Shown here piece by piece: positions 3,169-49,277 of a stretch of 64,000 bases of DNA. The notes beneath the pieces are model-generated. The model did not search any database. It saw nothing but the letters and a program-made list of their open reading frames with translations, and had not been told where the DNA came from. A program made the translations under genes and the position numbers. The stretch comes from Octopus vulgaris (Eukaryota), in contig OX597829.1 of assembly GCA_951406725.2 (NCBI GenBank), positions 18,104,001 through 18,168,000 of the forward strand, written 5' to 3'. How positions within the stretch are numbered: the first letter of the stretch is position 1; every line of letters begins with the position of its first letter.

Positions 3169-3343
3169 GGCGCAGGAGTGGCTTTGCGGTAAGTAGCTTG
3201 CTTACCAACCATATGGTTCCGGGTTCAGTCCCACCGCGTGGCACCTTGGGCAAGTGTCTTCTACTATAGCGTCGGGCCGACCAAAGCCTTGTGAGTGGAT
3301 TTGGTAGACGGAAACTGAAAGAAGCCCGTCGTATATATGTATT

Positions 3344-3374
<31 letters not shown>

Positions 3375-3580
3375 ATGTTTGTGTGTCTGTGTTTGTACCC
3401 CCATCATCGCTTAACAACCGATGCTGGTGTGTTTACGTCCCCGTAACTTGGCAGTTCGGCAAGGGAGACCGATAGAGTGAGTACAAGGCTTACAAAGAAT
3501 AAGTCCTGGGGTCGATTTGCTCGAGTAAAGGCGGTGCTCCAGCATGGCCACAGTCAAATGACTGAAACAAGTAAAAGAGT
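3169..3580 (+). mobile_element. tRNA-derived SINE family A, full length
   Basis: Head GGCGCAGGAGTGGC..GGTAAG..GGTTCAGTCCC, central (TA)n(TG)n, tail GACTGAAACAAGTAAAAGAG; more than 10 copies in the window. Confidence 0.9.
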
Positions 3581-7879: not shown

Positions 7880-8169
7880 ATACTATTATTCATATACTTT
7901 CTAAACTTTCCTATACTTTCTGTTACTTTGTTATCTCCTCTACTTCTTAGCTCTCTCGTGTGACCCTTCTGTCCGGCATTCGCTATGATAGATCGGTAGC
8001 TACTACACACATTCTTTTCTCTCCTTGTTTCTTTCTGTGTCCCTTTCTGTAGAAGAGCGTAGGCTCGAAACGTTAAAGACTTTTTCAATTCCCGTGCGTT
8101 ATACTAATACATCTCTTTGTTTTCTACACCACCTGTCTTCGTGTTTTGTTTTGTTTTTTCGTGAATTCT

Positions 8170-8171
<2 letters not shown>
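7880..8171 (+). mobile_element. PLE pseudo-LTR 3' end fragment
   Basis: Homologous to the terminal ~150 bp of the PLE at 28117-33663; ends at (TA)n. Confidence 0.75.
8043..8078 (+). ncRNA. Minimal type I hammerhead-like motif (PLE type)
   Basis: CTTT-CTGTAGA-A-GAGC(GTAG)GCTC-GAAA-CG-TT-AAAG. Confidence 0.65.
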
Positions 8172-8221
<50 letters not shown>

Positions 8222-28116: not shown

Positions 28117-29054
28117 TCTTCTCTCTTCGCTCTTATACGCCATTTGGTCTCAACTCTCCCCACTCCTCATCTAACCCCCTCTCCCCCTCCTCACATATCC
28201 TTCCCCCGACCCCTACTTCTTCAGTCCTTCATCCTTTCACCCCTACTCCCCTTCCCTTCTTCCCTCTTTCTCCCTCCCTCCTTCCCTCTTCCCCTTCCCT
28301 CTGCTCCCTCACTCCCCTTCTCTCTCCCCCTCTCCCTCTTTCCTCCTTCCTCCTCCCCTCTTCCTCCCCTTCCTCCTCCCCTCCTCTCTCTCCCCCTTTC
28401 TCTCCTCCTCTCCCCCCCTCTCCCCTCCTCCTCCCATCCCCCTCTTCTCCTCTTCCCCCCTCTCCTCCCCCTCTTCTCCTCTCTCCACACTACACCACAC
28501 GACTTTACACATCACATCATATATGATGTGCCATACTAATACATACACCAACTAATACATACTAATACGTACTAATACATACTAATACATACTAATACAT
28601 ACACCAACCCTATACATACACACGTCCAGACCTCTCATACGCACTTATACTCTCTCATACACACACACACACACTTATACATACTAATACGTACTAATAC
28701 ATACTAATACATACTAATACATACACCAACCCTATACATACGCACGTCCAGACCTCTCATACGCACTAATACTCTCTCATACACACACACACACACACAC
28801 ATACACCCTTATACATACTAATACATACTAATACATACACCAACCCTATACATACACACGTCCAGACCTCTCATACGCACTAATAGCTGGTCATTCAACC
28901 CTATTATCAACCCTATTATCTCCCCTTATTTCGCTCTCGCGTCTCATGTTTGATCTTTGACCTCTGGCCGAAATCAGATCGCCATGTTGATTCGTTAGTT
29001 ACTGCACGCATTTTTTTTCTCTCCTTCTTTATGTGTTTTTTTTCTCTCTGTGTA

Positions 29055-29092
29055 TCTTTCTGTTGAAGAGCGTAGGCTCGAAACGTTAAAGA
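29055..29092 (+). ncRNA. Minimal type I hammerhead motif, 5' pLTR
   Basis: TCTTT-CTGTTGA-A-GAGC(GTAG)GCTC-GAAA-CG-TT-AAAGA; palindromic AACGTT stem III. Confidence 0.7.
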
Positions 29093-29827
29093 CTTGTTTT
29101 ATTTATATTTCCTGAGCGCCATACTAATACAATTGTTTGTTTGTTTCCCACCTGCCTTCGTCTTTTGTCTATTTTCATAAAGCTTCCCGTTATATATTAT
29201 GCGCTCACGTGGTCTCACTTTCATCCTATATTCTACCAATACCACTATCAACACTTACCTCTACCTTGGATTTTCTTTACCTCTTGGATACTTACCATTG
29301 GCTGCACCTCTCTTTCGCGGATCAAAGTGACTTTGCATTGATGTGAAATCCTTAAAAAATATACCACGACGTCTACACATTTCTAACCTTGAACTTTCAA
29401 CCTTGAACTTGTTCGCATAAACTGTCCCGTTTGTTGTATTTTTATTTTCTCATATATTACCACTTTTTTACATTCATTTCATGCTTTCCACAGTTTCCTG
29501 CATTTTTGTTCTCCTTTCCGTCTTTCTTCCCTCTCTGGATGTCCATACTCTGTTTCCTCTGCCTGCACCCCCTTTTTTTGCCTCCCCCTCTCTCTGCTTC
29601 CCTTCTTTCTTTCCCTTTTCCGTTTGCCCCGTCTTTTCTGCCCCTATCGCTTACTTATCTAGTTTTTTCATACGATTATTATTTTTTTGTTTTTTTGAAC
29701 GTTTGTTTTTTTCCCCTTTTTTTTCGCTATCCTTTTTTATCTATTTTTTTCATACGATAATTTTTTGTTTTTTGTTTTTTGTTTTTTTTTTGTTTTTTCG
29801 AACGTTTGTTTTTTTCCGCTATCCCAT

Positions 29828-32690
29828 CATGCCGGATCCTAGGTCCTACCTCCTCACCCTCCATCATCGTTTGAAGGATCATCTCCGTTCTATTCCTGTA
29901 TATTGCCTTCAGCCGTCCGTTAATCTCTCTCTACTTCTTTTTTTAAAAAACCCGCTTCTCTAGCCATGTCTCTTTCCTAAGCCGCTGCCTACATCACCGA
30001 CTCATCCCTAAAGGTTTCCGCCTCCACTTCCACCCTGCTCTCCACTCGGATTCTTCCATCTTACCCATACTCCGCACCACATCTTACCGCCTTATGCGGG
30101 CCACCATTCGCTCCAATCTCTCTAAACTACATACCATCAACCGCCTTCTTCCTCCTGCTTTCTCCACCTTCTTCTCCTCTCTGCCGCCTCTCTATGCTCC
30201 AAACACGCTACGCTTCATTATCCATTTGAATCAACTCTTCCATCAATTTCTTTCTGATACCAAACTTCGTAAACTCCAATCACTCTTCCATTCCACCCTA
30301 CCCGACGCTACTACCCCAACTCCTCCACTACCCTTCTCCCCTCCCGATAGGCTCCATCCACCCACACCTAACCCCACTGCCCCTCCCTACAACCCCTTCT
30401 CCCCTCCCGATAGGCTCCATCCACCTACACCTAACCCTACTGCCCCCCCAACCACCCCCACACACCTCCCCAATCCCTCCCCCTCAGACCTCCACGAGAC
30501 CTACCACCCCTCCTACTTCTATTCCACCCACCCCTTCTCCACTTCCGTCTGTTGTTACCATTCCCCCCGATCTTCCCCTCTCTGCGGCTGAACGCTCCGT
30601 CCTTGGTAGGGGTCTGCGTTTCATCCCCCTCACTCCATCCTGTAAGGAATTCCAGACGCGAGTTGATGTCCACAGCTTTGTGCGCCGTGTCCGGTTGGGT
30701 GCGCATTACCACGACTCGACACCCACACCCAACGAAGAGGACTGCTTCACTGGCCTGGGCCGCCGACCATCCCCGTGGACGCCTGCCCCTGGCCAGATCC
30801 TAGCAGTGGATCTTTTCGCGGGCGCCTGTCAGCGTGCATTGGAGCGGTTCAACTTCTCCAGGCGCCAACGCCGCCTCAACATCTCCCCGGCTGAGCTCTT
30901 GGCTCTTCGTTCCCTCCAACGGCGCGCTGACATTATCATCAAACCGGCTGACAAGGGTGGAGCTGTAGTGGTGTGGCGCGCGGACCTCTATAGGGCCGAG
31001 GCTTTCCGCCAACTCAATGACACCTCCTTCTACTCCCCTCTGCCCTCTAACCCCACACGTAGCTACCAACAGACGGTATCCTCTACTGTCCAAGACCTCA
31101 TCTCGTCCTCCCGTCTCCCCCACACCGCATCCAACCTAATTGTGCGAACCCCACGTACCCCCACCATTTACTTCCTCCCCAAAATCCACAAACCCAACAA
31201 CCCTGGCCGCCCCATCGTCTCCGCCTGTAACTGCCCCACGGAGCTCATCTCTAAATACCTCGACCGTGTCCTTGCCCCCCTAGTGGCATCTCTTCACTCC
31301 CACATCCACGATACCAACCATGCTCTCCGGCTTTTCAACTCTTTCTCCTTTCCTCCCGGCTCCTCCAAAATCCTTTTTACTATGGACATCCAAAGCCTCT
31401 ATACTGTTATCCCTCACCACGAAGGACTGCAGGCCCTTCGACACTTTCTTGACCTCCGCTCCAACCCTGTACCTGACACCTCCACACTCATTCGTCTGGC
31501 CGAACTTGTCCTTACTCTGAACTGCTTCTCGTTCGCGGGCGAGTTCTACCATCAGATCTCGGGAGTGGCCATGGGAACGCGAATGGGCCCCAACTATGCG
31601 AACCTGTTCGTTGGCTATGTTGAGGCCCAAATATTCTCTAATTTCACTGGTCCCACTCCTGAACTATATGGTCGTTACATTGACGACATTATCGGTGCCA
31701 CCTCACTCTCCCGTGAACATCTAGATTCCTTCCTCTCTTCGTCCAATCTTTCCATCCAGCCCTCCACTTCACTTCCACTATCTCCAACACCTCTGTCTCC
31801 TTCCTCGACATTTCGGTTAGCATTCTTCACTCCACTCTTACCACCTCCATTCACTACAAACACACAGACTCACACTCATACCTCAACTTCTCTTCCTCCC
31901 ACCCAGAACACACCAAGCTTTCCATCCCCTATTCCCAATTCCTCCGTCTACGTAGGCTCTGTAGTGACGACCATGACTTTGAGACTCAGTCTCAACGTAT
32001 GGCTCACCACTTCACCCTACGTGGATACCCCCTCACCACTATCCACACCGCCCTTGCCAGAGCACGGTCTGTGGACCGTGTATCTGCTCTCTCTCCCCGA
32101 ACCCGCCCTGTAGTCTCCCGCCTCCCTTTTCCCCTCACTTACCACCCCACGACCCTACGTTTCCAACGCACCATTCTTCGAGCTTTCCGTCATCTCCAGT
32201 CCGACCCGTCCACTTCACACCTCTTCCCTAACCGACCCCTCCCCTCTTTCAAACGAGCCCACAACCTTCGAGACCTTTTGGTCCATAGCTCCTTCCCTGA
32301 CCCTACCTCCCAACCCGGCTCGTTCCCCTGCTCCCGCCCACGTTGCCGCACTTGCCCTTACCTCTCCAACACCACCCTCATCACTAGCACCCACCATCGA
32401 CCCTATCCCATCATCCACTCCTTCACCTGCACCTCCAGCAATATTATCTATTGCGTCTCTTGCTCTCTCTGTCATTCCTTGTACATCGGACAAACGGGAC
32501 GCCGCTTGGCTGACCGGTTCGCGGAACACCTTCTTGACATCCACCTTGCGAACGACACACCGGTCTCACGCCATTTCCGCACCACCGGTCACTCCTTGCA
32601 ACACCTATCTGTGTTCGGTTTCCCGTTTGCGCCGTGAACAGGAATTAATCTTCTCTCTTCGCTCTTATACGCCATTTGGTCTCAACTCTC
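29828..32690 (+). CDS. PLE polyprotein (RT, Cys-rich linker, GIY-YIG endonuclease), frameshifted
   Basis: Motifs HVSFLSRC..LIPKGF, VLGRGLRF, IKPADKG, FLPKIHK, RPIVS, TMDIQSLY, GVAMGTRMGPNYANLF, RYIDD, CSRPRCRTC, NIIYCVSC..C..LYIGQTGR..RFAEH, PFGLN. Frameshifts near 29945, 30450-30530, 31740 and 32620. The Cys linker suggests the Neptune clade. Confidence 0.9.
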
Positions 32691-33527
32691 CCCCCTCCTC
32701 ATCTAACCCCCTGTCCCCCCTCCTCACCTATCCCCCCCGACCCCTACTTCTTCAGTCCTTCATCCTTTCACCCCTACTCCCCTTCCCTTCTTCCCTCTTT
32801 CTCCCTCCCTCCTTCCCTCTTCCCCTTCCCTCTGCTCCCTCACTCCCCTTCTCTCTCCCCCTCTCCCTCTTTCCTCCTTCCTCCTCCCCTCCTTTCTTCT
32901 CCACCTCCTCTCTCTCCCACTCCTCCCTCCTCCCCTCCCCCTCCCCCTCTTCTCCTCTCTCCACACTACACCACACGACTTTACACATCACATCATATAT
33001 GATGTGCCATACTAATACATACACCAACTAATACATACTAATACGTACTAATACATACTAATACATACTAATACATACACCAACCCTATACATACACACG
33101 TCCAGACCTCTCATACGCACTTATACTCTCTCATACACACACACACACACACTTATACATACTAATACGTACTAATACATACTAATACATACTAATACAT
33201 ACACCAACCCTATACATACGCACGTCTAGACCTCTCATACGCACTAATACTCTCTCATACACACGCACACACACATACACCCTTATACATACTAATACAT
33301 ACTAATACATACACCAACCCTATACATACACACGTCCAGACCTCTCATACGCACTAATAGCTGGTCATTCAACCCTATTATCAACCCTATTATCTCCCCT
33401 TATTTCGCTCTCGCGTCTCATGTTTGATCTTTGACCTCTGGCCGAAATCAGATCGCCATGTTGATTCGTTAGTTACTGCACGCATTTTTTCTCTCCTTCT
33501 TTCTGTGTTTTTTTTTCTCTCTGTGTA

Positions 33528-33565
33528 TCTTTCTGTTGAAGAGCGTAGGCTCGAAACGTTAAAGA
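33528..33565 (+). ncRNA. Minimal type I hammerhead motif, 3' pLTR
   Basis: Identical to 29055-29092. Confidence 0.7.
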
Positions 33566-33663
33566 CTTGTTTTATTTATATTTCCTGAGCGCCATACTAA
33601 TACAATTGTTTGTTTGTTTCCCACCTGCCTTCGTCTTTTGTCTATTTTCATAAAGCTTCCCGT

Positions 33664-33734
<71 letters not shown>

Positions 33735-34522: not shown

Positions 34523-34694
34523 GATAGATAGGTAGATAAGTAGGTAAATAGGTAGATAGGTAGATAGATTTCTTTATTGGCCATGCAGGGCTAGATACAG
34601 AAGGGGCACAAAACAAAGTAGAGCCTTCCTTTTTGGAAAGAAGAGAAGGGAAGAAATAAAAAAAGGGGGCGAATTCCGATCAAAAGGAATCATG

Positions 34695-37600
34695 AAAAGA
34701 AAGAAAGAAAGCAAGAGCAAGCAAGAAAGCAAGCAAGCAAGCAAGCATGAAAGCAAGCAAGCAAGAAAGAAAGCAAGAAAGGAAGCAAGCAAGAAAGCAA
34801 GAAAGCAAGAAAGCAAGCAGAAAGCAACAAATCAAGAAAGCAAGAAAGCACGAAAGCAATCAAGCAAGAAAGCAAGCAGGAAAGCAAGAAAGCACGAAAG
34901 CAAGCAAGCAAGAAAGCAAGAAAACAAGGAAGCAAGAAAGCAAGCAAGAAAGCAAGCAAGGTAGCAAGAAAGCAAGCAAGAAAGCAAGCAAGAAAGCAAG
35001 AAAGCAAGAAAGCAAACAAGCAAGAAAGCAAGCAAGAAAGCAAGCAAGAAAGCAAGCAAGCAAGAAAGCAAACAAGCAAGAAAGCAAGCAAGAAAGCAAG
35101 CAAGAAAGCAAGCAAGGGAGCAAGAAAGCAAGCAAGAAAGCAAGCAAGAAAGCAAGCAAGAAAGCAAGCAAGGGAGCAAGAAAGCAAGCAAGAAAGCAAG
35201 CAAGAAAGCAAGCAAGAAAGCAAGAAAGCAAGAAAGCAAGCAAGCAGAAAGCAACAAATCAAGCAAGCAAGAAAGCAAGAAAGCAAGCAAGAAAGCAAGC
35301 AAGAAAGCAAGCAAGAAAGAAAGCAAGAAAGCAAGCAAGAAGCAAGAAAGCAAGCAAGAAAGAAACAAAAGAAAGAAAGCAAGAAAGCAAGAAAGCAAGC
35401 AAGAAAGCAAGCAAGAAAGCAAGCAAGAAAGCAAGCAAGAAAGCAAGCAAGAAAGCAAGAAAGCAAGCAAGAAAGAAAGAAAGCAAGAAAGAAAGAAAAG
35501 AAAGAAAGAAAGAAAGAAAACAGGAAAGCAAGAAAGCACGAAAGCAAGCAAGCAAGCAAGAAAGCAAGAAAACAAGGAAGCAAGAAAGCAAGCAAGAAAG
35601 AAACAAAAGAAAGAAAGCAAGAAAACAAGAAAGCACGAAAGCAAGCAAGCAAGAAAGCAAGCAAGAAAGCAAGGAAAGAAAGAAAGAAAACATGAAAGCA
35701 AGCAAAGCAAGAAAGCAAGCAAGAAAGCAAGCAAGAAAGCAAGCAAGCAAGCAAGAAAGCAAGCAAGCAAGCAAGAAAGCAAGCAAGAAGAAAGCAAGCA
35801 AGAAAGCAAGCAAGAAAGCAAGAAAGCAAGCAAGAAAGCAAGCAAGAAAGCAAGAAAGCAAGCAAGAAAGCAAGAAAGCAAAGAAAGCAAGCAAGAAAGC
35901 AAGCAAGAAAGCAAGAAAGAAAGCAAGAAAGAAAGCAAGCAAGAAAGCAAGAAAGAAAGCAAAAAAAAAAAGAAAGGGAGCAAGAAAGCAAGAAAGCAAG
36001 CACGAAAGCAAGAAAGCAAGAAAGAAAGCAAGCAAGAAAGCAAGCAAGCACGCAAGCAAGAAAGCAAGAAAGCATGCAAGAAAGCAAGCAAGCAAGAAAG
36101 CAAGCAAGCAAGCAAGAAAGCAAGCAAGAAAGAAAGCCAAGCAAGAAAGCAAGAAAGAAAGAAAGTTAGCAAGAAAGCAAGCAAGAAAGCAAACAAGCAA
36201 GAAAGCAAGCAAGAAAGCAAGCAAGAGCAAGAAAGCAAGCAAGAAAGCAAGCAAGAAAGCAAGCAAGCAAGAAAGCAAGAAAGCAAGCAAGCAGAAAGCA
36301 ACAAATCAAGCAAGCAAGAAAGCAAGCAAGAAAGCAAACAAGCAAGAAAGCAAGCAAGAAAGCAAGCAAGAAAGCAAGCAAGGGAGCAAGAAAGCAAGCA
36401 AGAAAGCAAGAAAGCAAGCAGGAAAGCAAGAAAGCAAGAAAGCAAGAAAGCAAGCAAGAAAGCAAGCAAGAAAGCAAGCAAGAAAGCAAGCATGAAAGCA
36501 AGAAAGCAAGAAAGCAAGAAAGCAAGCAAGAAAGCAAGCAAGAAAGCAAGCAAGAAAGCAAGCATGAAAGCAAGCAAGATAACAAGAAAGCACGAAAGCA
36601 AGCAAGCAAGAAAGCAAGCAAGAAAGAAACAAAAGAAAGAAAGAAAGAAAGAAAACAGGAAAGCAAGAAAGCACGAAAGCAAGCAAGCAAGCAAGCAAGA
36701 AAGCAAGCAAGAAAGCAAGCAAGAAAGCAAGCAAGAAAGCAAGCAAGAAAGCAAGAAAGCAAGCAAGAAAGCAAGAAAGCAAGCAAGAAAGCAAGCAAGA
36801 AAGCAAGCAAGCAAGAAAGCAAGAAAGCAAGCAAGAAAGCAAGCAAGAAAGAAACAAAAGAAAGAAAGCAAGAAAGAAAGAAAGCAAGCAAGAAAGCAAG
36901 AAAGCAAGAAAGCAAGAAAGCAAGCAAGAAAGCAAGCAAGAAAGCAAGCAAGGGAGCAAGAAAGCAAGCAAGAAAGTAAGAAAGCAAGCAGGAAAGCAAG
37001 AAAGCAGGCAAGAAAGCAAGCAAGAAAGCAAGCAAGAAAGCAAGCAAGAAAGCAAGCATGAAAGCAAGAAAGCATGCAGGAAAGCAAGAAAGCAAGCAAG
37101 AAAGCAAGCAAGAAAGCAGGCAAGAAAGCAAGCAAGAAAGCAAGCATGAAAGCAAGCAAGATAAAAAGAAAGCAGGCAAGAAAGCAAGCAAGCAAGAAAG
37201 CAAGCAAGAAAGCAAGAAAGCAAGAAAGAAAGCAAGAAAGAAAGCAAGCAAGAAAGCAAGCAAGAAAGCAAGCAAGAAAGCAAGCAAGCACGCAAGCAAG
37301 CAATAAAGCAAGAAAGCAAGCAAGAAAGCAAGCATGCAAGCAAGCAAGAAACAAGCAAGAAAGCAAGCAAGCAAGAAAGCAGGCAAGAAAGCAAGCAAGA
37401 AAGCAAGCAAGGGAGCAAGAAAGCAAGCAAGAAAGCAAGCAAGAAAGCAAGCAAGAAAGCAAGAAAGCAAGCAAGCAGAAAGCAACAAATCAAGCAAGCA
37501 AGCAAGAAAGCAAACAAGCAAGAAAGCAAGCAAGAAAGCAAGCAAGGGAGCAAGAAAGCAAGCAAGAAAGCAAGCAAGAAAGCAAGAAAGCAAGCAGGAA

Positions 37601-38870
37601 AGCAAGAAAGCAGGCAAGAAAGCAAGCAAGAAAGCAAGCAAGAAAGCAAGCAAGAAAGCAAGCAAGAAAGCATGCAAGCAAGAAAGCAAGAAAGAAAGCA
37701 AGAAAGAAAGGGAGCAAGAAAGCAAGAAAGCAAGCAAGAAAGCAAGAAAGCAAGAAAGAAAGCAAGCAAGAAAGCAAGCAAGCACGCAAGCAAGAAAGCA
37801 AGAAAGCATGCAAGAAAGCAAGCAAGCAAGAAAGCAGGCAAGAAAGCAAGCAAGAAAGCAAGCAAGAAAGAAAGGGAGCAAGAAAGCAAAAAAGAAAGAA
37901 AGGGAGCAAGAAAGCAAGCAAGAAAGCAAACAAGCAAGAAAGCAAGCAAGAAAGCAAGCAAGGGAGCAAGAAAGCAAGCAAGAAAGCAAGCAAGAAAGCA
38001 AGCAAGAAAGCAAGAAAGCAAGCAAGCAAGAAAGCAACAAATCAAGCAAGCAAGAAAGCAAGCAAGAAAGCAAACAAGCAAGAAAGCAAGCAAGAAAGCA
38101 AGCAAGAAAGCAAGCAAGCAAGCAAGAAAGCAAGCAAGAAAGCAAGAAAGCAAGCAGGAAAGCAAGAAAGCAGGCAAGAAAGCAAGCAAGAAAGCAAGCA
38201 AGAAAGCAAGCAAGAAAGCAAGCATGAAAGCAAGAAAGCATGCAGGAAAGCAAGAAAGCAAGCAAGAAAGCAGGCAAGAAAGCAAGCAAGAAAGCAAGCA
38301 TGAAAGCAAGCAAGATAACAAGAAAGCAGGCAAGAAAGCAAGCAAGCAAGAAAGCAAGCAAGAAAGCATGCAAGCAAGAAAGCAAGAAAGAAAGCAAGAA
38401 AGAAAGGGAGCAAGAAAGCAAGAAAGTAAGCAAGAAAGCAAGAAAGCAAGAAAGAAAGCAAGCAAGAAAGCAAGCAAGCACGCAAGCAAGCAAGAAAGCA
38501 AGAAAGCAAGCAAGAAAGCAAGCATGCAAGCAAGCAAGAAAGCAAGCAAGAAAGCAAGCAAGCAAGAAAGCAGGCAAGAAAGCAAGCAAGAAAGCAAGCA
38601 AGCAAGAAAGGGAGCAAGAAAGCAAGAAAGAAAGAAAGGGAGCAAGAAAGCAAGAAAGCAAGAAAGCAAGAAAGCAAGCAAGAAAGCAAGCAAAAGCAAG
38701 CAAGCAAGCAAGAAAGCAAGCAAGAAAGCAAGCAAGCAAAGCAAGCAATAAAGCAAGCAAGAAAGCAAGCAAGCAAGAAAGAAAGGGAGCAAGAAAGCAA
38801 GAAAACGAGCAAGCAAGAAAACGAGCAAGAAAGCAAGAGGGAAAGCAAGAAAGAATGCGAGAATGCAAGC
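34695..38870. repeat. ~4.2 kb (GCAA/GAAA) compound satellite
   Basis: Dominant 12-mer GCAAGCAAGAAA with recurring variant words. Confidence 0.97.
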
Positions 38871-38911
38871 AAGACAGACAGACAGACAGACAGGCAGACA
38901 GACAGACAGAC

Positions 38912-38983
<72 letters not shown>

Positions 38984-38985
<2 letters not shown>

Positions 38986-40380
38986 ATTTCTTTTTTGGCC
39001 ACACAGGGCTAAACACAGAGGGGACAATAACAATGTTTAGTTTTTTTTCTTTTTGAGGTGGGCGAAAACAAAGTAAATAATTAGGGACAACGCTCAAAAT
39101 GGTTCGAAATCGTTGGGGATATATGCAAAAAATGTCGAAATAGTACTAAAAGTTCCCAAGAAATGGGGAGGTTTATCTGTGAAAAGAAAAACCTACGAAA
39201 AGAACACAGTAACCTCGGGCAATTACGTCAGATATTAACATTTATTTAGAAATAAGTAACTCTCTGTATTAAATATTTTTACGGTTCATAGGATTATGCT
39301 CAATGTGGCTTCGTCATTCATTCGTGCCATCTTTGCTACATTACCCATCTTTTTGGGGAACAGTCGCTAGACAAAACTTGCCTCTCTACTCTCACATCCT
39401 TTTCAAGTGATACTTGAAGAAGTTGATGAGAGATTGACCAGAGAGGAAATTGTTTGTCTCCAATCTTTTCAGACGCGTCCACCAGATACATTCTTTCTCC
39501 ATAACCCCAAGAATGATGAAAATAGCTCTTCCTTCCCGTTTGAAAGAAGGAGGCGTAACAATATTGACGATAGACTAGGCTGATAAACCGACTCATCCCA
39601 CACGTGACAGCAGTCGTTAGACATAAGCCCACAGGTCGGAAATTGTTGGACACCGCACGAGCGCGTGCAGAACGGTTTCGTCGCTCTGACGGCATCTCGG
39701 GTAGGTCGGCCACGTGTTTCTCGAGCCGTGTCTGTAGAGCTAATCCCGAACGGGTAGCGCTCCTCGGTAGCATTGCCAGGCCAGGGATCTCCGGAAGTTG
39801 TCCATTAGCCCTGGCCCGAAAGTCGTCCTGAACAGGTGGGTCAGGTATTCCTCGTCGACGTCCAGGTTCGCTCCAAGATCGTCGTCGTACCTCCCATCCA
39901 CTAATCCCTGATAGAATGCTTTGGTTGTGTTGAAGTCACTCAAGGTCGACCCGGGACGGCAGAGTTGCTTGAGAGCAATGCGACACTCGCGGTGCCATTC
40001 GCCCTTCCTCGGCCTCTTTTTGATCCACGACTGCAGTTCGGTCATGGAGACGAGCTGCGGGAAAGCGTGCCTCACAAACGGCGACCACACCTGTTCACCG
40101 TCGTCTACGAAGAGCCGGAGATGTCACAGTCTCAGCGCGTGTCTGCGCATCATCAACCATGGCATACCCAGCCCTCCTTTTAACGGGTGTTAACAGCAAA
40201 TGGATCGCCTGACCATCGAGACGCATCCTTTCCACAAGAAGCGAAAGTGAATGCGTTCTAGTTTGGTGATGGTAGGGTCGGGACAATCCACGACGGTCAG
40301 GCGGTAGTAGATGATGGACGCGATGTACGAGTTCGCCACCTCCGCCCGACCTTTTAGGGACAGTTTCCTCTCGGCCCATT
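38984..40380 (-). mobile_element. 5'-truncated Tx1/L1-clade LINE inserted in (GATA)n
   Basis: Peptides WAERKLSLKGRAEVANSYIASIIYY, FLWKG, GGLGM, AWQCYRGALPVRD and CPRC..ETVLHAL; U-rich 3' UTR; (GATA)n on both sides. Confidence 0.85.
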
Positions 40381-41315: not shown

Positions 41316-41663
41316 GTAGGTAGGTAGGTAGGTAGGTAGGTAGGTAGGTAGGTAGGTAGGCAGGCAGGTAGGCAGGTAGACAGACAAACAGACAGACAGA
41401 CAGGCAGACAGACAGATAGCTGTATATCTGTATATGTAAATATTCAGGGAGAGAGAGAAAGATCTTGCCTGTATTAATTTAGTTCTTCTGTGGTTTCGGA
41501 GTGTTTTGATTCCTATCTTCAGCAAAGCAGGTACTTATAAGTACCCTATTACATATAATAATATTTCTATATTTCATATATATTGATTGATTTTGCCTAT
41601 TCGGCTTTTATGACTGCGGCCACTAACGTTATTTTTTTATAAATGATAATGTTCTTATATATA

Positions 41664-41897
41664 TGTTGATTCGCTAGCCTCTGCACGCATTTTTTTTCTC
41701 TCCTTCTTTCTGTGTTTCTTCTCTGTATATCTTTCTGTTGAAGAGCGTAGGCTCGAAACGTTAAAGACTTGTTTTATTTATATTTCCTGAGCGCCATACT
41801 AATACAATTGTTTGTTTGTATTCCACCTGCCTTCGTCTTTTGTTTATTTCCGTAAACCTGCCTTCGTCTTTTGTCTATTTTCATAAAGCTTCCCGTT
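41664..41897 (+). mobile_element. PLE pLTR 3' end fragment with HHR (41730-41767)
   Basis: Near-identical to 33459-33663; ends CTTCCCGT followed by TATATA. Confidence 0.85.
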
Positions 41898-44690: not shown

Positions 44691-44879
44691 TGTGACATGT
44701 GACAAACATATTCCAACTACCATAAATTATGCTCATACCTAAACACCGCTTTGCGCCAATGCTTCGTTGTTTATCTCGATCGGGCGATCGACTAGCACAA
44801 ATCAGTCAACGTGTTGGCTGAATTATAATTAAAGTTACAAGCTTTATTTAGTTCACTCAGAGTTGCATCTCTTAGGGAC

Positions 44880-44926
44880 ATCTCATTGACAAGAGTCAAA
44901 ACACTCGAAACATCGGTGTCTGAGAT
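44880..44926 (+). ncRNA. Type I hammerhead ribozyme, U3:A8 variant
   Basis: ATCTCA-TTGACAA-GAGT(CAAAAC)ACTC-GAAA-CA(TCGG)TG-TC-TGAGAT; GUC triplet, predicted cut after 44920. Confidence 0.85.
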
Positions 44927-45224: not shown

Positions 45225-46299
45225 TGAGTCATTTGTGCTGCTGTTTTACTGAGTGAGTTTTTACCTGTTTTTGCTGTTGTTAATTCTTATTAATGTTTGT
45301 TATTAGATCTGTTGAAATTTGAACTTCAGAAGTCGCGCGTGGAGTTGTTTTTTTCGCCCTGCGGGGCGAAAAAAATTGTTATTTCTACTATTGTAGATTA
45401 TTTTGTGTTATTTGCTGAACTGTTTTCCCGTTGAGGAAGAATTAATCTTTCTTCACAAGACGTCTTTTCTGTGTGAGTTTAACCATGGAAGACGAGATGC
45501 ATCTCGAATTGAATTCCTTATAACTAACGTCGACTTCCCGCGACGACTGGAAGAAATCCCGTTTGAACAAGTCCAGCAGGTAAACCTACAAGGTGACAAG
45601 GAATTGAAAAAGGGCATGTGTCTTTCTGCCGCCGCAGGCGGACAATTTCAAGAAATACAAGTCTCAAAAGAGCAACTCTTCAAACACAAGAACCTAATTA
45701 AAAGAAATGGAAATGAAACTAGATTTATACCACCTAAGGAAATTTTGCAAAACTTAGCAGTAAAAACTGTGACTTATAAAATTTACAACAAAAAGGAGAA
45801 AAAAATTATGACTATGAAAAATGAAGCACTCGAGAAGGGTCTTGCACCAATATGGGATAAAATAAAATACGTACGGAGGGGGCCTGAAAACGCTACTGTA
45901 GAGGCCCAGTTCGAAAGCAAAGATATCGCTAAAGAAATATCAACGCTAAGTCTGAAAACAGAGGAAATTTTAGTACTATCCACGTACCTCGGCTGGAGGA
46001 CGGCTAAAATCATAATAGAAGAAATTCCGGCCGGGTTCGACGTGTACTGGCTAGCAGCGGCTTTAATATATGCTACCATGAGGGGGAAAAAGGATGTAGC
46101 CGTTGGACAGTAGACCAACAAGGAAAAAATGCAAGGAAATCTACATTTTTAAATCATATAAATCATTTATTTTTAACTTAATATATTTTTGTTTAAAAAG
46201 AGCAAACTGAAAAAAACTCGCTGAGTATTTCTTTATTAATGTTTTGTATTGTCCTGTACTGTCCTTCTATATTAGGTCTTATGATCATAAAAATAAATG
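45225..46299 (+). mobile_element. ORF1-only Tx1/L1-like non-autonomous retroposon
   Basis: 17-bp TSD TCTCTTAGG(G/T)ACATCTC (45208-45224, 46300-46316); 5' UTR, ORF1-like CDS, and a 3' end with AATAAA resembling the Tx1/SINE C tail. Confidence 0.75.
45485..46113 (+). CDS. Putative Tx1-type ORF1 (RRM-like), probably frameshifted near the start and C-terminally truncated
   Basis: Non-repetitive ~200-aa frame with YLGWRTAKIIIEEIPAGFDVYWLAAAL, resembling Tx1 ORF1; the ATG at 45485 is in a different frame. Confidence 0.55.
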
Positions 46300-46311
46300 T
46301 CTCTTAGGTAC

Positions 46312-46358
46312 ATCTCATTGACAAGAGTCAAAACACTCGAAACATCGATGTCTGAGAT
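46312..46358 (+). ncRNA. Type I hammerhead ribozyme, U3:A8 variant, second copy
   Basis: Same as 44880 but stem III is the perfect palindrome ACATCGATGT; predicted cut after 46352. Confidence 0.85.
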
Positions 46359-47137: not shown

Positions 47138-47273
47138 ACTTCTGTATCCCTTTCTGTAGAAGAGCGTAGGCTCGAAACGTAAAAGACTTTTTCTATTCCT
47201 GAGCGTTATACTAATACATCTGTTTATTTTGTACACCACCTGTCTTCGTCTTTTGTTTTTTTCCGTAAACTCT

Positions 47274-47276
<3 letters not shown>
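47138..47276 (+). mobile_element. PLE pLTR 3' end fragment with HHR (47150-47185)
   Basis: CTTT-CTGTAGA-A-GAGCGTAGGCTC-GAAA-CG-TA-AAAG; ends CTCCC followed by TATATA. Confidence 0.8.
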
Positions 47277-49157: not shown

Positions 49158-49277
49158 GCTTACGGCCATATCACGTTGAAAACACTGGTTCTCGTCCGAT
49201 CAGCGAAGTTAAGCAACATCGAGCCTAGTTAGTACTTAGATGGGTGACCGCTTGGGAAACCTAGGTGTAGTAAGCAT
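49158..49277 (+). rRNA. 5S rRNA, dispersed copy (probable pseudogene)
   Basis: GCTTACGGCCATATCACG...GTTCTCGTCCGATC..GAAGTTAAGC...AGTACTTAGATGGGTGACCGCTTGGGAA...GTAAGC; ~120 nt; no oligo-T terminator. Confidence 0.9.

Follow-up and report, generated by a model that had tools for sequence, protein, structure and literature searches.

Minimal hammerhead ribozymes of metazoan Penelope-like elements (PLEs) cleave weakly, and only as multimers. In the Anolis Poseidon element PAc (Frangieh 2024; accessible parts of PMC11167929), hammerhead cleavage requires protein and is dispensable for insertion in vitro, and RNA-seq reads ending at the cut site are absent. PAc templates trimmed to +20, beyond the 5′ half of the core, were still inserted; an intact fold is therefore unnecessary for insertion in that element. 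As for the core itself, the available portions of the sources describe a natural A6C hammerhead that is active though slow in Mg2+ and rescued by Mn2+ (PMC3088659, PMC7151607), and low activity for every single or double mutant of the canonical CUGA turn except the C3/G8 swap (PMC9901934). Why PLEs retain poorly cutting hammerheads is an open question, cleavage being dispensable in the sole reconstituted system. Both A6C in nature and PLE hammerheads assisted by protein have been described; the literature searched yielded no A6U family.

The window, a stretch of 64,000 nucleotides of Octopus vulgaris DNA, contains hammerheads in the terminal repeats (pLTRs) or end-fragments of a Neptune-type PLE encoding a reverse transcriptase (RT), a CX4CxxC linker and a GIY-YIG endonuclease (EN). 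All features of the copy at 28117..33663 lie on the + strand. Its 5′ pLTR (about 28117-29197) corresponds to the 3′ end of a truncated copy preceding it and begins within the last ORF codons. Downstream are a candidate ORF start and N-terminal region (29830..30540; the frame is interrupted near 29940 and again between 30290 and 30540), a Penelope-type RT (30542..31747; Pfam RVT_1 E 3.6e-7; the 120 relatives listed are 43-67% identical), the RT thumb, linker and GIY-YIG endonuclease with CCHH (31741..32690; frame breaks near 31745 and 32625) and the 3′ pLTR (about 32649-33670), then (TA)n. The Pfam GIY-YIG match is weak (E 0.015); relatives align across RT and EN at 47-66%. CX4CxxC in the translation agrees with the CX2-5CxxC linker that precedes the endonuclease in both Neptune and Nematis (PMC8557442). 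The element has inserted into a TA tract belonging to another repeat, which is present uninterrupted at 3216-3430, and partial-tandem pLTRs with (TA)n insertion are those of a Penelope-like, C-terminal EN+ element. In an RT tree built without named reference elements, the sister clade (94/95, not starred) includes L022, whose hammerhead is identical to the Acropora Neptune motif in the accessible part of PMC4209133.

RT match, linker, endonuclease motifs and pLTRs thus support the first-pass annotation in its identification of a PLE with a minimal hammerhead. Its description of the element as young holds in part. Across 958 aligned columns (pyrimidine tract excluded) the pLTR pair shows 6 differences, besides 6 gaps, and near-identical high-depth contigs are present in two public sequencing runs (X5 and X8), but at least four breaks interrupt the ORF here, for which mutation and assembly error are both possible sources. 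For another ORF (45487-46110), all matches in an Atlas search were below 0.8.

The stem II 12-mer has five exact matches in the window, all on the + strand (8055, 29068, 33541, 41743 and 47162); with up to two mismatches there are 12, against 1.53 expected, and 0 of 100 shuffles gave as many as 12. The corresponding C3 positions are 8047, 29060, 33533, 41735 and 47154, the core reading CUGUAGA at 8047 and 47154 and CUGUUGA at the other three. In every copy an extra A comes after the core, then stem II and GAAA-CG-U-H, and stem I has 4-5 bp. The canonical core (C3 U4 G5 A6 N7 G8 A9 / G12 A13 A14, A15.1-U16.1, H17) is present throughout except at position 6, almost invariably A in hammerheads and U in 5/5 copies here. 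All five have the make-up of a minimal type I hammerhead, with stems I and II, an extra nucleotide after A9 and a palindrome replacing stem III. Within the element they occupy 29055..29092 in the 5′ pLTR (29063 being U6, with the cut predicted 3′ of 29087) and 33528..33565 in the 3′ pLTR (predicted cut 3′ of 33560). The others, likewise on the + strand, belong to end-fragments: 41730..41767 (subfamily 1; fragment about 41663-41896, with a short duplication inside the tail), 8043..8078 (subfamily 2; about 7980-8172, then (TA)n) and 47150..47185 (subfamily 2, A at position 17; about 47141-47276).

Exact 12-mer matches and core letters bear out the earlier proposal of five A6U hammerheads sharing stem II; the positions it gave (8043, 29055, 33528, 41730, 47150) are the stem I starts, and its two subfamilies are visible in the copy alignment. 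Of its 2-nt palindromic stem III, the palindrome stands and the true helix does not: it consists of A-CG-U, which forms nothing stable in the monomer. The window also has an A6 motif at 44886. Rfam hammerhead models gave no match at E<=10 to the 3′ copy (33480-33620), a result of little weight since the A6 motif at 44886 was likewise missed; among the 150 of 302 matches listed from an Rfam scan of the window there is no hammerhead. When 12 motifs picked by hand are aligned, pairing holds in 95.4% of cells and 8/9 pairs covary, the rows having been selected by scripts requiring those stems.

Variation in the family was assessed in the contigs of three public runs, X1, X5 and X8 (values below in that order). 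U6 is the consensus in all three, whereas the first-pass annotation had named a genome-wide A6 as what would overturn its reading. In X5, A6 is below 2%, none of the three T>A places at ≥2%, all listed, being 29063; in X1 and X8, A6 may occur as a minor variant, as one T>A place beyond the matches listed could be 29063. At G5, G8, G10.1, G12 and G16.2 no G>A, G>C or G>T reaches 2% in any of the three runs. Position N7 is U, A (22/21/27%) or C (20/17/24%), and H17 is U or A (A 68/61/83%), G staying below 2% there in X1 and X5; loop II varies among contigs. Summed contig depth is 8.0M/1.45M/178k over stem II and 1.3-2.8M/0.20-0.40M/12-34k over the 3′ tail obligatory for each copy, Logan contigs losing rare variants and overestimating summed depth where they fragment. 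The raw-read run X22 gave 48 T-rich partial reads only, which leave stem II and the cut site uncovered; it bears the label of family-positive runs, so that organism codes are unreliable as species counts. Pattern scans for the motif found 0 matches in viral_contigs and genome_contigs, and an RT search of viral_contigs confirmed 0/74 candidates.

The three-way variation at N7 bears on a second code as the source of U6. The motif could overlap a 3′ splice acceptor after the long upstream pyrimidine tract, which would favour U at position 6. This tract ends ...CUGUAG (subfamily 2) or ...GAAG, and the intron of D. virilis Penelope ends at hammerhead helix I. However, since N7 varies three ways a UAG acceptor is not kept, and among the X8 matches listed (X8 being a presumed RNA run) there is no joint or loose-end pile at 29065-29068. 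We consider this reading very improbable.

Motif and flank evolve differently. When the subfamilies are compared, substitutions affect 1/37 and 2/37 positions (3-5%) in the motif and 20/89 and 14/88 (16-22%) in the tail, where there are also 6 gaps each (Fisher p 0.001 and 0.036); the motif is therefore better conserved than its flanking pLTR, the other point on which the earlier proposal could have fallen. Contig loose ends accumulate at 29056 and 29095, and hundreds of contigs match 29056-29095 only, diverging on either side. The same figures weigh on the idea of a neutral relic, in which one master copy lost A6 before the family amplified, conservation then reflecting recent descent. The window does hold only five copies of two subfamilies, its intact-looking copy is young by pLTR comparison, and Naiad PLEs flourish without canonical hammerheads. 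The contrast between tail and motif, the contigs sharing the motif alone and the confinement of changes to positions that hammerheads leave free all oppose a relic, which we judge improbable. Run contigs and subfamily comparison support a family-wide, selectively kept A6U. Judged by sequence, and on the choice posed by the first-pass annotation between an odd active core and a repurposed structure, the pattern of variation leans towards a catalytic fold being kept.

Ninety RT-selected loci were searched for relatives of the motif. Their 26 strict hammerhead matches carry A6 in 24 cases and U6 in one, making U6 the derived state; this lineage presumably acquired A6U a single time, its ancestor having had A6. 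Seven further loci have U4C, six of which, or their family, fall in the clade sister to this RT, and L027 has U6 again, with a U3-A8 pair. The turn thus appears to have been relaxed repeatedly in this group. Tentatively, one Neptune branch may have given up the CUGA uridine turn repeatedly (A6U family-wide here, U4C in two sister families, and in L027 A6U with U3-A8) and retained the catalytic guanosines; these would be protein- or metal-dependent active hammerheads beyond the accepted consensus, or folds turned RT landing pads, and consensus searches would have missed them wholesale. Literature searches found no A6U hammerhead family (a 2017 small-variant collection lay outside that check), nothing on this motif in octopus and nothing relevant to the core string among the 20 of 65 titles listed; the sole match for hammerhead A6U concerned a twister ribozyme, and for hammerhead U4C the only match was Perreault 2011 (PMC3088659, seen in excerpt).

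In fold predictions, U6 would allow the core to pair with the ACGU palindrome (U6-A15.1), adding to monomer inactivity. This predicted U6 rod becomes weaker as the flanks are lengthened (P 0.00-0.81), and for 5/16 canonical A6 relatives the predictions show locking in a different register. That one off-register helix is perfected by A6U and U4C alike is an idea we rejected: P(G5:15.2) was 0.00 in 4/4 distinct U4C motifs, which are predicted to fold in a different register, also found in canonical cores. U6 as a unique 'safety catch' is weakened because canonical cores share the alternative register.

The two hammerheads of the element are 4473 nt apart (29060 to 33533), a spacing from which a unit-length transcript had been proposed. 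It would fit a re-joined circle, not a cut linear RNA: all copies extend 95-134 nt beyond the predicted cut site, a segment absent from doubly cut linear RNA, and the template was therefore uncut or re-ligated. The tail from the predicted cut site to the common 3′ end of insertions (29088..29190, + strand, 103 nt) would mark an internal RT start, by analogy to PAc in the available part of PMC11167929.

Copies that all span the cut site could also be made if the motif were catalytically dead and its fold retained as a landmark that binds or positions an element RT/endonuclease copying from about 100 nt downstream. U4C in seven relative loci, the second U6 in L027, the low activity of CUGA-turn mutants (PMC9901934, in part) and, from PAc, insertion independent of cleavage and the absence of reads ending at the cut site (PMC11167929, in part) speak for such a landmark. 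Against it, H17 avoids G, and positions G5, G8 and G12 are constant across subfamilies, as expected under catalysis, and the insertion of trimmed PAc templates shows that an intact fold is unneeded there. We regard a dead landmark as possible but rather unlikely.

The explanation we put first, at about even chances, is a minimal hammerhead of a Neptune-type PLE family with a U6 consensus, probably a slow, conditional ribozyme cutting only as a dimer or with an element protein. Copying by the RT would begin at an internal site some 100 nt downstream, the RNA being either intact at its hammerhead or ligated there again; cleavage would come into play afterwards or now and then, to process read-through transcripts, and A6U may be tolerated because fast cutting is not needed. 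Counting against a slow ribozyme are the CUGA-turn mutants just cited, the fading of the predicted U6 rod with longer flanks together with the locked A6 relatives, and the capacity of a protein binding the hammerhead fold to enforce equal conservation without catalysis.

An abundant, high-copy family with a changed core letter and intact catalytic ones is a natural experiment on the need for RNA cutting. Should the motif cut, the hammerhead consensus is wider than current descriptors, and ribozyme families of large size are missing from the count; should it fail to cut, that would directly indicate that the fold has a role other than catalysis.

Small PLE hammerhead variants collected by Luense, Weinberg and Breaker in 2017 are said to have a near-absent stem III, dimer cleavage and very high copy numbers; their stem III would resemble the A-CG-U found here, and copy numbers are high in both. 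The minimal type I hammerheads that Cervera and de la Pena described from metazoan PLEs in 2014 (available part of PMC4209133) likewise lie in pLTRs, mostly as truncated single copies, with a stem I of 4-5 bp, an extra nucleotide between A9 and stem II, G10.1-C11.1 and palindromic 15.2-16.2, and the Acropora Neptune motif (Fig. S3) has the present layout. That figure shows A6 and U4 in 56/56 representatives, its descriptor requiring both, and no cephalopod, in contrast to the family-wide U6 here. The PAc hammerhead also lies in a pLTR, and the RT starts internally there, 85-92 nt beyond the cleavage site (111-118 minus 26), which compares with 95-103 nt past the predicted cut here; PAc differs in its Poseidon clade and in its ORF, which begins in stem II, whereas our candidate start is about 740 nt downstream, and the accessible part of PMC11167929 mentions no core deviation. 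Position 6 is naturally substituted in the phage Bcep176 hammerhead as well (Perreault 2011, PMC3088659; Naghdi 2020, PMC7151607; both in excerpt), there by C at a single phage locus with cleavage assayed, here by U in a high-copy retroelement family. By analogy, Bcep176 can serve as a precedent for a variable position 6.

The element at 28117-33663 (+) is a Penelope-like element (PLE) in partial-tandem arrangement. Outside a pyrimidine tract, its pseudo-LTRs (pLTRs; 28117-29197 and 32649-33670) show 6 differences in 958 aligned columns. The 5′ pLTR begins within the final ORF codons, consistent with a truncated second copy. The insertion site is the TA tract of another repeat, present in intact form at 3216-3430. 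From sequence matches and translation, the ORF carries RT, joined through a CX4CxxC linker to a GIY-YIG/CCHH endonuclease. Its reading frame is interrupted near 29940, 30290-30540, 31745 and 32625, whether by mutation or by assembly error. RT identity to the 120 relatives listed is 43-67%, those named being from sharks, rays, cnidarians and echinoderms. Linker and TA targeting, given as Neptune-type traits in PMC8557442, fit a probable Neptune-type element; the RT tree contained no named reference elements. Elsewhere in the window, a degenerate GCAA/GAAA-type microsatellite of ~4 kb (34690-39000) yields long spurious ORFs, and a full-length 5S rRNA copy is found at 49158-49276 (+; 96 bits).

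The five hammerhead motifs described in the first-pass annotation were borne out: their stem II has five exact occurrences, far above chance, and a generic two-strand scan of the window returned, at its settings, the same five and no others. In order, each copy has a 4-5 bp stem I, C3 U4 G5 U6 N7 G8 A9 and one extra A, then a stem II capped by a GUAG loop and followed by G12 A13 A14, A-CG-U, H17 and stem I. Alignment upheld the proposed division into two subfamilies (29060, 33533 and 41735 versus 8047 and 47154). The three further motifs (8047, 41735, 47154) lie in end-fragments of 135-235 bp, each followed by (TA)n. The motif TACTAATACA (29122-29135 and equivalents), ~35 nt past the cut site, is invariant in all five copies and both subfamilies, and is also repeated many times upstream within the pLTR; it is a candidate protein-binding signal.

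We then considered U6 in the wider family. Twenty runs from nine studies contain at least half of the stretch's sequence words, and four were compared in detail over 28940-29330 (80% likeness, 2% variant threshold): X1, X5 and X8 as assembled contigs (12,245, 4,823 and 989 aligned) and X22 as raw reads, where the element family was not present. In X1, X5 and X8, position 6 (29063) was not among the 40 variant places displayed, 13 further places being undisplayed. The three T>A places of X5 are 29064, 29087 and 29145; none is 29063, so A6 is below 2% in this run. In X1, and likewise in X8, a single T>A place falls outside those displayed, and a minor A6 variant is possible in both. No change at G5, G8, G10.1, G12 or G16.2 reached 2% in X1, X5 or X8, all places of G change being displayed. 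Variation was found at N7 (A 22/21/27%, C 20/17/24% in X1/X5/X8), at H17 (A 68/61/83%, with G below 2% in X1 and X5), at the base that opens loop II (A 10/5/6%) and along stem I's outer edge, all of them positions that hammerheads leave free. In the contigs of these three runs U6 is thus the family consensus; an A6 consensus would have contradicted the annotation.

By two measures, the motif is better conserved than its flanks; equal conservation, the other outcome that would have spoken against the annotation, was not observed. Summed contig depth in X1, X5 and X8 peaks over stem II, at ~3-4x or more the depth of the 3′ tail, a stretch which every copy must carry and which served as reference; such depth does not measure copy number and rises artificially where contigs are fragmented. 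Loose contig ends cluster at 29056 (277/157/37 in X1/X5/X8) and 29095 (383/222/58). Between the window subfamilies the motif differs at 1/37 and 2/37 positions, the tail by 20/89 and 14/88 substitutions plus 6 gaps each (p 0.001 and 0.036, two comparisons that are not independent). A neutral relic is improbable, and overlap of the motif with a splice acceptor is less probable still.

Relatives were sampled as 90 loci whose RT resembled that of the window: genome_contigs supplied 10, and from the 515 in metagenome_contigs the best 80 were taken. Within genome_contigs, animal PLEs occur in two bacterial MAG records, which points to host DNA contamination. A scan leaving position 6 free gave 26 matches, several being repeats of one family, against none in twenty shuffled passes; position 6 was A in 24, G in one (L025) and U in one (L027, 2790-2827, a single PLE copy combining U6 with a U3-A8 pair). 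Leaving the core free gave nine deviant matches: L025, L027 and seven with U4C (core CCGACGA), in two families of Neptune-type relatives. Six U4C loci form one family (L001:2615, L002:2062, L003, L005:1991, L010:4119, L080:2266); the seventh, L011, has a different stem II. In an RT tree taking in 28/90 loci and 13/120 proteins, the sister group of the window RT (94/95, not starred) is a clade that includes L001, L002, L005 and L011 together with the canonical L022; L027 falls in another part of the tree. A6 in relatives and this placement indicate that U6 is derived, and the deviant cores that the CUGA turn (C3 U4 G5 A6) was altered on more than one occasion among these elements. The descriptor behind Fig. 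S3 of PMC4209133 demanded U4 and A6, which are present in 56/56 of the representatives given there.

An A6 control is available within the same genome. Two other type I hammerhead motifs, 44879-44926 and 46311-46358 (position 3 at 44886 and 46318; 1432 nt apart), combine a U3-A8 pair with a normal A6, and their stem III is a real one, 3 bp long and closed by a 4-nt loop. Both sit in 210-bp direct repeats (92%) flanking a 238-aa ORF (45397-46113) without significant Pfam or Atlas match, together a hammerhead-flanked mobile unit that may be protein-coding.

Folding with 8-nt flanks gave a U6-A15.1 pair at P 0.64-0.98 vs 0.02-0.12 with A6, and at P 0.00-0.81 with longer flanks; this pairing is predicted to sequester the dimer palindrome. 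Since 5/16 canonical relatives were predicted to be locked in another register and U4C did not favour the U6 register, it is at most a by-product.

Published work already covers PLE hammerheads, the way they act as dimers, and natural variants at position 6. An A6U family or a PLE U4C family was not found in the literature searched, whose scope did not reach Luense 2017, the likeliest to contain them. Judged by its sequence, the motif is a real variant within a known class of ribozymes, carrying U6 across the family, and its activity is putative. We give about even chances to a slow conditional ribozyme. As reported, minimal PLE hammerheads cut weakly, as multimers (PMC4209133), a natural A6C hammerhead that is slow in Mg2+ works well in Mn2+ (PMC3088659, PMC7151607), and a canonical hammerhead with CUGA-turn mutations has low activity (PMC9901934). 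A dead fold kept as a landmark is a less probable reading. The hammerhead of PAc, a Poseidon-clade PLE from Anolis, is reported in PMC11167929 to cut only with protein, cutting being dispensable for insertion.

The five copies extend 95, 98, 103, 103 or 134 nt past the predicted cut site, and family depth in X1, X5 and X8 collapses just beyond 29191. Double cutting of a transcript, at one motif and the other, would place its 3′ end at 33560 and leave it without this tail, from which we infer that the insertion template must be either read-through RNA that stayed uncut or a circle formed by re-joining. In PAc, initiation by RT is internal, 85-92 nt beyond the site of cutting (PMC11167929); the window family matches it in that insertions end well past the cut site.
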